64,000 bases of DNA. Source: Puia sp. (GTDB taxonomy: Bacteria > Bacteroidota > Bacteroidia > Chitinophagales > Chitinophagaceae). Below the pieces are notes generated by a model. It had not been told where the DNA came from. It was given only the letters and a program-made list of their open reading frames with translations, and ran no database searches. The position numbers and the translations under genes are program-made. Positions 49,957 through 53,214 of the stretch are shown in pieces; position 1 is the stretch's first letter, and each line of letters begins with the position of its first letter. The stretch is taken from NCBI GenBank assembly GCA_035501395.1, contig DATJWK010000020.1:3851-67850 (forward strand), read 5' to 3'.

Positions 49957-50613
49957 TCAATGAACGCTACCGTCCTGCACTTTAATCTTATGTTTGCCGG
50001 CTTTTTTCTCGAATTCGAGCACTTCCTTTGGCTTGGCGACCGCCTGGGTGGAATCGGGCATCGCCCGCTGGCCGGCTTGCGATTTTTCCAGTTTCCCCAG
50101 ATCCCAGGTTTCTGTCCGGATAACGGTTCCGGTAAACGCATCATAGAATTTCCAGGTTCCGTCCTTTATGGCGGCGCCCGTATTCTTAATGATCACCGTC
50201 CTGTATTTGTCAAGGTGCTCGACGTCTTCTACGACAAGCGTATCGTAAAGCTTGTTCGGGTTAAGCGCGACCCAGCTTTCTTCGCGCTGCAAGGTGCCGT
50301 TGATACCAAAGTATTGGCAAATCCCGGCTTTGTTGCCCCATTTGTATTGTTCGATCCCGATCAGATCGCCCTGCAGGCTGAACAACTTCCAGACACCTTC
50401 TTTTTTGTCGTCCTTGTAAATGCCTTGTTCTTCAAATCCCGGTTCACCGCGGATCTCGTCGTAATGGTTCACCCATTTCCCCTGCTTCCGGTTTTGCTGG
50501 TCGACGCCGTTCAGCGTATCGCCATGCGGACCGATCGTATAGTCTTTCAACTGGGACCGGGCGCTAAGGCCGGCGAGTTGAGCGATAATGAGGAAGAAGA
50601 GGATCTGACGCAT
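49957..50613 (-). CDS. Hypothetical exported protein with MORN-variant/YwqK-like repeats
   Basis: KQGKWV, KKEGVWKLF, KDGTWKFY repeats; signal peptide. Confidence 0.7.
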   Translation of the reverse strand: MRQILFFLIIAQLAGLSARSQLKDYTIGPHGDTLNGVDQQNRKQGKWVNHYDEIRGEPGFEEQGIYKDDKKEGVWKLFSLQGDLIGIEQYKWGNKAGICQYFGINGTLQREESWVALNPNKLYDTLVVEDVEHLDKYRTVIIKNTGAAIKDGTWKFYDAFTGTVIRTETWDLGKLEKSQAGQRAMPDSTQAVAKPKEVLEFEKKAGKHKIKVQDGSVH

Positions 50614-51330: not shown

Positions 51331-52044
51331 CTATTTCATCAGCAGTTTGACCGCCAGTCCGGTGAAAATGGCGATGCCTATACTCAGCAAGGTCCCGATC
51401 ACCAGGTATTCCGTTTTTATTTCCTGCCGGTCTTTTTCGCTAAACCGGATGATACCCTTTGCGGTGACGAGCAGACCGATCGCGGAATACTGGCCCTGCA
51501 GGACGAGTACCAGGACGATAATCCGTTCGGCGATCCCGATCCATTTACCCGCATTGACAAGGCTGTTCTCCGGATCATCGATCCTTCTGCTCCATTGTCT
51601 GGTTAGTTCGCCGATAAGAATACCCGCGGGAGCCGTTACAAAAACAAAACCTGCCGTTATCAGCCAGGCATTGCTGTCGGTATCCAGCCGCCGGCGCAAA
51701 TCATCCCAAATTCCGGGGTACCGGAATGTCAGGAACCAGCAGACGCCGATAACGCCGAGGTGTAGCAGCTGATCGATCAGGAAATAACGGATCGTGCGGG
51801 GCCGGTAGGATTTCCAGACGTCGATAAAAAAGTGCGTGACGAGAATAGTGAGGGCAACCGCCCAATAACGCCAGCCGATGAAGATGTAAGCCAGCCCGGC
51901 GGTCAGAAGCGCATGCACGTAGAGTTTTGGGGAAGCAAAATGCTTCCTGCAACGCTCGTCGACCCATGCTGCAGGCTGCAGGATAAAGTCGGTCAGCAGA
52001 TGGGACAGGATCAGCCTGATCAGCCATATGGTTCCGGGTATCAT
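51331..52044 (-). CDS. DUF3307-family multi-pass membrane protein
   Basis: HLLTDFILQP, LYVH, THFFID, IDQLLH; C-terminal GKWIGIAER, AKGIIRF, EYLVIGTLLS; ATGA overlap with the upstream gene. Confidence 0.85.
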   Translation of the reverse strand: MIPGTIWLIRLILSHLLTDFILQPAAWVDERCRKHFASPKLYVHALLTAGLAYIFIGWRYWAVALTILVTHFFIDVWKSYRPRTIRYFLIDQLLHLGVIGVCWFLTFRYPGIWDDLRRRLDTDSNAWLITAGFVFVTAPAGILIGELTRQWSRRIDDPENSLVNAGKWIGIAERIIVLVLVLQGQYSAIGLLVTAKGIIRFSEKDRQEIKTEYLVIGTLLSIGIAIFTGLAVKLLMK

Positions 52045-52682
52045 GATAGTAGTTCGGTCATTTTCGTGTATTGCTGAAGTATCCTTTCGATCGCCGGCCA
52101 CCTTCCGGCATTTGCCAGCTCGGATATGGTGCTCTTGGCTTTCTCGAGCGACAGCGCCAGTTGCTGCTGCGTCACTCCCTTTAACAGGTTTGCGATGACA
52201 TCGGCCTGCTTCGCGGTCATTTCCTGGAAAATGCTGTCGAGATAGTCCGCCATGGTCTGAAACCCGATATCCGCCATTTGGTTGCCGCTGACGATGGAAA
52301 GACGGCGTTCCGTTGCCTGCAGCTTGTCCAGTTCCCTGCCGGATAGCACAAAGGCCTCGCCCTTTGCAGATCCTGGTGCATGAACAGGCGCGGTTACCTC
52401 GCCGATTCCGATGGCGATCCGGATATCCCCCCGGGCCGCTCCGTCTTCCCTGGTGGTTATTTCGATTGCCACGGCCCTGCAGGCCAGCGCCAGCTGCAGC
52501 GCTTTTGAAGGCTCTTTTACATACGCCTGAAAACTGTCACCGCGGTAGAATTCGTGCGGATGCTCCTGCAGAAGCCCGGCCAGCACTTCCAGCAGCCTGG
52601 CTTCCTGCGGCGGAGACAGGCTGGTTGAATTTACAATATCGCCGGTCAGGACGGCGCCGGGGATTCCCTTCGGTCTGCTCAT
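52041..52682 (-). CDS. SatD-family protein (class III cyclase-like core plus C-terminal HTH)
   Basis: LTGDIVNST, YRGDSFQ, IRIAIGIG, GEAFVLSGR; HTH TQQQLALSLEKAKSTISE. Confidence 0.8.
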   Translation of the reverse strand: MSRPKGIPGAVLTGDIVNSTSLSPPQEARLLEVLAGLLQEHPHEFYRGDSFQAYVKEPSKALQLALACRAVAIEITTREDGAARGDIRIAIGIGEVTAPVHAPGSAKGEAFVLSGRELDKLQATERRLSIVSGNQMADIGFQTMADYLDSIFQEMTAKQADVIANLLKGVTQQQLALSLEKAKSTISELANAGRWPAIERILQQYTKMTELLS

Positions 52683-52688
52683 AGCTCT

Positions 52689-52794
52689 GTTCGGTTGTTT
52701 CACCGAATTTGGTCAAAGTTCGGTATTTTTACCGAATATTGCAAGAGTTCGCCAATTTTACCGAATTTTTATACAGTTCGCCATTTTTACCGAA
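52689..52794. repeat. Four 19-bp palindromic direct repeats, 29-bp period, 10-bp variable spacers
   Basis: GTTCGGTTGTTTCACCGAA (52689), GTTCGGTATTTTTACCGAA (52718), GTTCGCCAATTTTACCGAA (52747), GTTCGCCATTTTTACCGAA (52776). Confidence 0.95.
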
Positions 52795-53214
52795 CTAGTC
52801 GCCGATAAAGAACCGAAGCGCCAGTTCGTATCCTTTCAGGCCCAGGCCGGCGATCGTACCCTTTGCCTTCGCCGATACATACGAGAGGCGGCGGAATTCT
52901 TCCCGCGCGTTGACATTGCTGATGTGAACTTCGATAACCGGCGCTTTGATGGCCGCAATGGCATCGCCGATCGCAACGGAAGTATGGGTATAGCCACCGG
53001 GGTTCAGGAGAATACCGTCCGAGGAAAATCCGACGCGCTGCAGCTCATCGATCAGTTCGCCTTCGACGTTACTCTGGAAATAACTAAAGGTGATCGAGGC
53101 GTATTTCCTGACAAGCTCCGCATAGTATTGCTCGAAGGTCTGGCTGCCATATACTTCAGGTTCCCGCGTACCCAGCAGGTTCAGATTCGGACCGTTGATG
53201 ATGGCAATACGCAT
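52795..53214 (-). CDS. aroQ: Type II 3-dehydroquinate dehydratase
   Basis: INGPNLNLLGTREPEVYG, QSNVEG, NPGGYTHTS, EVHISN. Confidence 0.97.
   Translation of the reverse strand: MRIAIINGPNLNLLGTREPEVYGSQTFEQYYAELVRKYASITFSYFQSNVEGELIDELQRVGFSSDGILLNPGGYTHTSVAIGDAIAAIKAPVIEVHISNVNAREEFRRLSYVSAKAKGTIAGLGLKGYELALRFFIGD

Follow-up and report, generated by a model that had tools for sequence, protein, structure and literature searches.

A tandem array of palindromes with a 29-bp period as the likely autoregulatory operator of a SatD-like regulator in Puia sp.

In Escherichia coli, HipB binds cooperatively to the four TATCC-N8-GGATA operators of hipBA and represses its own two-gene operon (PMC3920265). 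The E. coli K-12 hipBA operators start at positions 365, 393, 432 and 460 of the locus compared here (L124; operators at 365-477), which gives spacings of 28, 39 and 28 bp. By analogy, HipB at hipBA is the closest known case for the element described in this report, a tandem array of four palindromes in a stretch of 64,000 nucleotides from Puia sp. (GenBank assembly GCA_035501395.1, contig DATJWK010000020.1, positions 3,851 to 67,850 of the forward strand), which as a whole is hereafter called the window. The array fills the interval between aroQ and a gene for a 213-aa regulator with a predicted helix-turn-helix (HTH) domain, and the regulator gene is in turn followed by a gene for a DUF3307 membrane protein. 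We consider it likely, from comparison of sequences, that the four palindromes are a private and cooperative operator array of this SatD-like regulator, by which the regulator would control its own expression.

The likeness to HipB extends to several features. In both cases a two-gene operon begins with the gene for an Xre/Cro-type HTH protein, and several palindromic sites (5-6 nt, N8, 5-6 nt), which are operators at hipBA and predicted operators in the SatD-like case, lie over the regulator's own promoter, likewise a predicted one in the SatD-like case. The 28-bp operator pairs of hipBA match the 28-29-bp period of the SatD-like arrays, some distant examples of which use TATCGG-N8-CCGATA. 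HipB, however, is an 88-aa antitoxin whose partner, HipA, is a kinase toxin and co-repressor, whereas the SatD-like protein carries its HTH behind a fused cyclase-like domain of 155 aa and has a DUF3307 membrane protein as its partner. The hipBA operators are two pairs with a 39-bp gap, whereas the SatD-like array is an uninterrupted run of up to six sites with one period. The SatD-like/DUF3307 pair, moreover, is not known to behave as a toxin and antitoxin.

Phage lambda CI, NrdR and Lrp may be regarded as looser analogies than HipB. In phage lambda, CI and Cro bind OR1, OR2 and OR3, which are three 17-bp sites at a spacing of 23-24 bp with two divergent promoters. The predicted arrangement in Puia sp. 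resembles them in its tandem palindromic operators over the regulator's own promoter, in the cooperativity of neighbouring dimers and in autoregulation, but the cooperativity in lambda works through a C-terminal domain unrelated to cyclases, and the lambda operators do not vary in copy number at a fixed period. NrdR boxes are about 31-32 bp and Lrp/AsnC sites about 30 bp apart, and a nucleotide- or ligand-sensing oligomer spans several palindromes. Here the likeness lies in an oligomeric regulator on two or more palindromes about 30 bp apart, while the binding architecture is different (a zinc ribbon and an ATP-cone in NrdR, a winged HTH and a RAM domain in Lrp), the spacing is near three full helical turns instead of the 2.7 of the SatD-like array, and control is global or regulon-wide instead of private to a single locus.

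The name of the regulator family comes from the Pfam pair SatD (PF16264) and DUF3307 (PF11750), which is named after the sat operon of Streptococcus mutans. The locus in Puia sp. shares the DUF3307 partner with that pair, but here the regulator comes first and DUF3307 follows. The papers found in a literature search deal with satellite DNA or unrelated subjects, and none of them covers the function of SatD or DUF3307.

Four palindromes at a 29-bp period

The minus strand at 52689-52797 reads TAG(aroQ stop)-TTCGGTAAAAATGGCGAAC-tgtataaaaa-TTCGGTAAAATTGGCGAAC-tcttgcaata-TTCGGTAAAAATACCGAAC-tttgaccaaa-TTCGGTGAAACAACCGAAC-agagct-ATG. The 19-mers, which have the form TTCGGT-N7-SCGAAC, occupy 52776-52794, 52747-52765, 52718-52736 and 52689-52707 on this strand and are parted by 10-nt spacers; the first adjoins the aroQ stop TAG directly, and the six nucleotides agagct separate copy 4 from the regulator ATG at 52682. 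Start-to-start distances between the copies are 29, 29 and 29 bp, Tandem Repeats Finder returned a period of 29 with 3.4 copies, and the left half-site TTCGGT is invariant in 4 of 4 copies. With the preceding base counted in, the full symmetric unit is a 20-bp near-palindrome, GTTCG-N10-CGAAC, that leaves 9-nt spacers, and the spacers in the window agree pairwise at 4 of 9 positions, which is about the background for such A/T-rich spacers.

An earlier, sequence-only reading of this DNA had described four palindromes at an exact 29-bp period from aroQ to the ATG, and the sequence, the coordinates and the period were all reproduced. It had also stated that the array begins right at the aroQ stop, where the G of TAG is in fact the first base of the 20-bp palindrome, that TTCGGT is invariant and copy 3 is a perfect palindrome, both of which can be read directly in the sequence, and that the spacers are unrelated to each other, which their background agreement bears out. 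Its layout of 19-bp units and 10-nt spacers also stands, but the symmetric unit has been mended to 20 bp with 9-nt spacers. A candidate fifth half-site, TTCGGTTCTTT at 52807-52817 in the 3' end of aroQ, lies 6 nt off the 29-bp register and within conserved aroQ coding sequence, and was judged to be a chance match.

The pattern with one mismatch gave 6 matches against 1.0 expected, and 0 of 100 shuffles of the window reached 6. In the whole genome of 5.39 Mb, the exact pattern is found at this locus only, apart from two matches with G/C-rich centres. A position weight matrix (PWM) was built from 29 sites of seven other genomes, with the window excluded, and the four copies of the window took ranks 1-4 in the genome with scores of 27.5, 26.7, 24.6 and 21.0, while the next best score was 18.2. 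The array is real, statistically unexpected and unique in this genome. Dispersed palindromic repeats of the kind of repetitive extragenic palindromes, bacterial interspersed mosaic elements or miniature inverted-repeat transposable elements were ruled out, the motif being confined to this locus in the genome.

Table 1. Positions of the palindromes, the predicted promoter elements and the two genes downstream in the window.
Feature	Position	Strand	Remarks
Palindrome copy 1 (distal), gTTCGGTAAAAATGGCGAAC	52776..52795	-	Starts with the G of the aroQ TAG; PWM score 26.7, genome rank 2
Palindrome copy 2, aTTCGGTAAAATTGGCGAAC	52747..52766	-	PWM score 24.6
Palindrome copy 3, aTTCGGTAAAAATACCGAAC	52718..52737	-	Perfect 7+4+7 palindrome; between the predicted -33 and -7 elements; PWM score 27.5, genome rank 1
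Palindrome copy 4 (proximal), aTTCGGTGAAACAACCGAAC	52689..52708	-	6 nt from the ATG at its 3' end; PWM score 21.0
Predicted -33 element, TTG	52742..52744	-	In spacer 2; read from the sequence
Predicted -7-like box, GAACTTTG	52714..52721	-	Last four bases of copy 3 plus TTTG of spacer 3; consensus TAnnTTTG
Regulator gene, 213 aa	52041..52682	-	Residues 1-155, class III cyclase/GGDEF-like fold; residues 157-212, Xre-type HTH
DUF3307 membrane-protein gene	51331..52044	-	Pfam PF11750, E 9e-24; second gene of the operon

Conservation of the array in Bacteroidota and beyond

Orthologues in the same genus have three, four or five copies with the same 29-bp period. In L009 and L010, and likewise in L016 and L021, three to five copies at 29 bp precede the ATG although upstream a homologue of the MORN-like gene at 49957-50613 of the window takes the place of aroQ. 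Because the cassette of array, regulator gene and DUF3307 gene follows this homologue instead of aroQ in several same-genus genomes, it appears to have moved as a unit, with the array included. The cassette is also patchy, as it occurs in 6 of 41 relatives, and of the 301 Bacteroidota genomes sampled, 59 have a homologue by the family profile. The sequence-only reading had named close relatives that keep the genes as a check on the array: in the same-genus orthologues the array is present with the gene.

The spacing was compared among 80 orthologue loci of Chitinophagaceae, which include members of Puia, Ferruginibacter, Hanamia, Ginsengibacter, Sediminibacterium, Flavitalea and Chitinophaga. 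The adjacent spacings are exactly 29 bp in 177 of 198 cases, the others including seven of 28, three of 30 and two of 27 bp, and the full palindromes per array range from one to six, mostly from two to six, with three being the commonest number. The spacers are A/T-rich and otherwise nearly random, with an identity of 0.58 within arrays versus 0.45 between arrays. Because spacer length has remained constant after spacer sequence drifted to near background, the comparison indicates that selection acts on the spacing, and the same argument had led the sequence-only reading to prefer selected spacing over recent slippage. Copy number appears to change through duplication of the 29-bp unit, and 18 of 140 spacer pairs agree at at least 8 of 9 positions and look like recent duplications (e.g., in L020 and L027). 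These near-identical neighbours and the changes in copy number are what would be expected if the array were a functionless product of neutral replication slippage. Such repeats would, however, gather indels and decay, whereas here the spacers are at background, yet the half-sites and the exact spacing last across families, classes and two phyla; neutral slippage is thus hardly credible as an explanation.

The upstream open reading frame (ORF) is divergently oriented in about 40 of 97 loci, and the array is therefore independent of read-through from the upstream gene. Intrinsic terminators of the upstream gene were rejected as an explanation, since no terminator-like site is found on the minus strand and the array is present at these loci with divergent upstream ORFs. 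At the site centre (positions 10-11 of the 20-bp site), TT occurs 130 times and AA 70 times among 268 sites (L013-L092 and the window). Of 81 arrays, 60 have a T-rich site nearest the promoter, and the other array positions are mixed, so that a rule of polarity (T-rich or A-rich centres) along the arrays was dropped, the T-rich proximal site being the only pattern. The sole parallel that can be offered for it is the resemblance of TATATTTA to the -7 box.

A single-protein query for related loci returned no relatives, but the orthologue alignment A1 used as a query did find them. The distant loci were compared by autocorrelation over 260 nt upstream of the gene in a 60-nt match window, with control segments taken from the same loci. 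Of the 29 distant Bacteroidota loci, 22 had their strongest autocorrelation at a lag of 28 or 29 bp (32-50 matches per 60), and in another locus (L097) the peak was at 58 bp, i.e., twice 29, while the control segments gave at most 33 matches and no favoured lag. Half-sites of the distant loci include TATAAGC, TTAGTCT, TATCTGC, TATCGG, TATATGC and TTCGAT. In arrays with a 28-bp period (L095, L103, L105, L106 and L117), the segments between the palindromes are also palindromic, which gives two kinds of dyad axis. The underlying pattern is thus a half-site that flips its orientation at intervals of 14 bp, or of 15 and 14 bp in turn where the period is 29 bp.

The profile search returned 2278 protein clusters at 50% identity for the SatD-like family, and tblastn located the module in Vibrio, Salinivibrio, Pseudoalteromonas and Sphingomonas, in each case on a plasmid or chromid. 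An annotated DUF3307 gene lies 3' of the homologue in Vibrio, Salinivibrio and Sphingomonas, and the record of Pseudoalteromonas is unannotated in that stretch. The conjugative plasmid p1 of Vibrio lentus (L125) carries three TTAGCC-N7-GGCTAA sites at 28 bp before the homologue and DUF3307, and Pseudoalteromonas and Salinivibrio carry two sites each at 28 bp. The place of the cassette on this conjugative plasmid shows that mobile DNA carries the module; no homologue was found in the phage collection searched. The cassette on p1 is flanked by genes for an AAA ATPase and for a recombination-promoting nuclease/transposase of the Rpn family. On plasmid unnamed3 of Sphingomonas insulae (L126), an extra small ORF precedes the homologue and DUF3307, and the neighbours include genes for an ImmA/IrrE-family peptidase and, by annotation, for a Pycsar system effector.

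The repeats might instead act as RNA. A hairpin array, placed in the 5' leader or in the 3' region of aroQ, would then be cut to units of about 29 nt, which would serve as a ToxI-like antitoxin or a small RNA, or the hairpins would be stacked terminators or stabilisers. ToxI consists of 36-nt direct repeats whose transcript is cleaved by the endoribonuclease ToxN, the product of the downstream gene, and the array resembles it in having short tandem repeats directly upstream of a protein-coding gene. A 5-7-bp hairpin is possible in each copy, copy 4 is probably transcribed in the leader, the array here begins with the aroQ stop, and folding of the 141-nt region scored better than that of its shuffles (z = -2.7), although this is expected of any set of palindromes. 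Among the 268 sites, however, there is no excess of G:U-type pairs at paired positions (for pair 6/15, 5 GT/TG were found versus 11.3 expected), and the central complementary pair was observed 41 times versus 111 expected, the centre being a polar TT/AA tract of A/T instead of a stem or a structured loop. In the window itself, copies 1 and 2 break the stem by G-G oppositions that are not compensated.

Further differences from ToxI/ToxN point in the same direction. Only the palindromic core is conserved and not the whole repeat units, the regulator encoded downstream is a predicted DNA-binding protein with a cyclase fold and an HTH and has no ToxN-like or other ribonuclease domain, and the promoter-like elements are placed within the array or at its 3' end, not upstream of it. 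Rfam gave no match at E up to 10 except two chance matches inside coding region, and no terminator-like site is present on the coding (minus) strand, the one on the non-coding strand being at chance level. The divergent upstream gene at about 40 of the 97 loci also speaks against this reading, and the motif is wholly different between lineages while the geometry is kept, as is expected of a site that co-evolves with a protein. An RNA role, whether in the leader or at the end of aroQ, is in our judgement extremely unlikely. The second proposal of the sequence-only reading, a ToxI-like repeat RNA, finds no support in view of the lack of an endoribonuclease downstream, the conservation of the core only, the lack of G:U excess and the Rfam result.

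Regulator, half-sites and promoter elements

The regulator was modelled by AlphaFold2 with a predicted local distance difference test score of 93.6. Residues 1-155 have the class III cyclase/GGDEF-like fold, and Foldseek matched adenylyl, guanylyl and diguanylate cyclases (best E 4e-5), the top matches being photoactivated and mycobacterial adenylyl cyclases (E from 4e-5), and a profile search of PDB matched 3mr7 with an E of 0.025. D15 and D49, the two metal-binding Asp residues of the cyclase fold, are invariant in A1, and R116 is nearly invariant in A1 with K, E or Q at the equivalent position in distant homologues, while no Asn equivalent of the cyclase transition-state Asn/Arg pair is apparent. 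The sole direct Pfam signal is a weak HTH_3 at residues 167-202 (E 7.7e-4), and the recognition helix is located at about residues 183-192 (KSTISELANA). In hhalign, the HTH of the window family aligned with HipB residues 15-50 at a probability of 66%.

The name SatD, which the sequence-only reading had given to the regulator, needs to be qualified. The PF16264 profile (cut-off 29 bits) did not match the window protein even at E up to 10 and had no match genome-wide. Two distant homologues found with profile A1, L098 and L104, match PF16264 over its full length (E 1.3e-7 and 7.8e-9; 31.9 and 35.9 bits, respectively). A direct match thus failed but the link through these intermediate homologues held, and the label is valid only transitively. 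The window protein is a member of a divergent Chitinophagaceae branch of a SatD-like family. NCBIfam had no match for either the regulator or the DUF3307 protein, and PADLOC returned only insignificant HTH or CARF fragments (E above 0.02), with no tie to a known defence system.

The start of the regulator is fixed at its ATG by orthologue alignment A1. An ORF of 220 aa that begins at GTG 52703 makes the regulator too long and reaches into palindrome copy 4, and the 256-aa ORF listed from GTG 52101 is likewise too long for the DUF3307 gene. The TGA of the regulator and the ATG of the DUF3307 gene overlap as ATGA (52041-52044), which suggests translational coupling from the regulator to DUF3307. 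A homologous DUF3307-like ORF is found immediately 3' of the regulator in about 109 of 110 loci. On the other side of the array, aroQ encodes a type II dehydroquinase (PF01220, E 1e-54).

The sequence-only reading had proposed a comparison of the repeat with the HTH recognition helix upstream of orthologues, and the half-sites do track the helix, with L085 and L038 as exceptions. Among the distant loci, similar recognition helices go with similar half-sites, e.g., ISQSAVNQRSR with TATAAGS and KSQSN[IV]SE[GA]LKRG with TATCTGC. In Chitinophagaceae, helices with ...SQL/SEL... are mostly associated with TTCGGT and those with ...QH... mostly with TTCGTA/TT. A one-residue code from helix to base (L versus H after STIS-Q/E) was dropped in view of the exceptions and of phylogenetic confounding.

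This co-variation also bears on whether another factor binds the array, or whether the array has a structural role in DNA (an iteron- or centromere-like element, a recombination site or curved DNA) and is linked to the cassette for other reasons. Evenly spaced repeats with A/T-rich spacers do resemble plasmid iterons and ParR centromeres, and the cassette has a patchy distribution, varied neighbours and copies on plasmids, as a mobile unit would. However, the HTH protein encoded directly downstream is the only DNA-binding protein that is always found with the array, and the half-sites diverge together with it. The array is always at the 5' end of that gene, in a single orientation and over promoter elements, and no replication, partition or recombinase gene is conserved nearby. 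We regard this alternative, whether another factor or a structural role, as very unlikely.

The promoter consensus of Bacteroidota is TTG ... TAnnTTTG. In the window, TTG-N20-GAACTTTG flanks copy 3, which thus occupies the interval between the predicted -33 and -7 elements; the sequence-only reading had noticed this bracket, and it is kept in orthologues of the Puia clade, where TTG-N19-20-GAAYTTTG flanks the penultimate palindrome (L013, L014, L016, L019 and L021). In most Chitinophagaceae, the slot after the last full palindrome is RTTCG-TATATTTA/G, so that a left half-site passes straight into a -7 box, and this slot lies 25-35 nt upstream of the ATG. The last palindrome of several distant lineages merges at its right half-site with TATATTTG, a few nucleotides upstream of the ATG. 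A sigma-70 promoter scan found nothing, as is expected for Bacteroidota. The promoter elements are consensus matches backed by conservation, and the array appears to overlap promoter-like elements. Copy 4 is predicted to cover the start site and the early leader (about +1 to +20 of the transcript), a position inferred from the -7-like box.

The same protein and the same sites could also form an upstream activating platform, in which dimers near -39, -68 and -97 would help RNA polymerase to bind or to stay at a promoter whose -33 element is weak, resulting in positive autoregulation. Most Chitinophagaceae have no visible canonical TTG/TTTG at -33 and place a full palindrome at the position of a class II activator, and those arrays, of up to six copies, reach only upstream of the -7 box. 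A site or half-site is nevertheless positioned over the -7 box or the predicted start in nearly all lineages, which is the usual position for a repressor, and the Puia clade has a TTG at -33 with the operator between -33 and -7. The closest characterised analogue, HipB, is also a repressor (PMC3920265). We consider activation unlikely, and within the operator-array explanation the regulator probably represses rather than activates.

A model for the proposed operator array and its significance

We favour a private operator array for autoregulation because the array accompanies the gene whatever lies upstream, because the period is conserved across phyla while the half-site changes with the protein, and because the motif is private to this locus in the genome. 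We infer that the 213-aa protein is what binds the array, and that it does so as dimers that cooperate. In this model, regulator dimers would bind each 20-bp palindrome with one HTH per GTTCG half-site, and the fixed 28-29-bp register would bring neighbouring dimers into contact and so make occupancy cooperative. With copy 3 in the -33/-7 gap and copy 4 over the predicted start, a filled array would shut off the embedded promoter, and the regulator and the translationally coupled DUF3307 gene would be under negative autoregulation. The cyclase-like domain would be the module for dimerisation and sensing, and a ligand or nucleotide that acts on it would presumably set the occupancy of the array. 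The first proposal of the sequence-only reading, which was a cooperative operator array for the HTH protein, is strongly supported by the comparison with relatives, with binding itself being predicted.

Several observations weigh against this model. The period of 28-29 bp is about 2.7 turns of B-DNA and not a whole number of turns, so that neighbouring dimers would be on different faces of straight B-DNA, and the geometry of the cooperative complex is unexplained; the 14-15 bp between half-site centres is also a wide span for a classical HTH dimer. Bending or wrapping of the DNA, or a protein chain of helical form, is probably part of the complex. An activator would also fit sites with centres near -39 and -68, and the first base of GAACTTTG does not match TAnnTTTG. 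No clear array emerged by autocorrelation at six or seven of the 29 distant loci (L097 counted), and no 28-29-bp array is visible in the 300 nt examined upstream of the homologue on the Sphingomonas plasmid. Finally, phylogeny confounds the pairing of helices with half-sites, and L085 and L038 are exceptions in that they combine a QH helix with TTCGGT sites.

A further reading, which we consider quite improbable, is that the DNA of the array templates the pairing of cyclase-like domains between adjacent dimers in a continuous chain, and that assembly or disassembly of the chain switches a nucleotide-binding or nucleotide-forming activity that controls the DUF3307 protein. A continuous protein chain would be possible because the half-sites alternate in orientation every 14-14.5 bp, and the pairing may be likened to HipA bridging HipB dimers on operators 28 bp apart. 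If this reading were true, the cassette would be an undescribed mobile module for DNA-scaffolded signalling, or one of a toxin-antitoxin-like or defence character.

Tandem-operator autoregulation is already well known, and what is new for the operator array proposed here is that an uncharacterised family of regulators would use this known principle. Its value therefore lies in annotation and in a lead for a gene pair of unknown function and not in surprise. The match to the 28-bp pairs of hipBA hints at a common structural solution by which Xre-type regulators bridge neighbouring operators. The SatD-like/DUF3307 pair is widespread across Bacteroidota and on plasmids of Proteobacteria, and the family gains a concrete regulatory model with a predicted cognate operator in each lineage, a strict rule of 28-29-bp spacing and a predicted promoter layout, which offers a route to the signal that may act through the cyclase-like domain.

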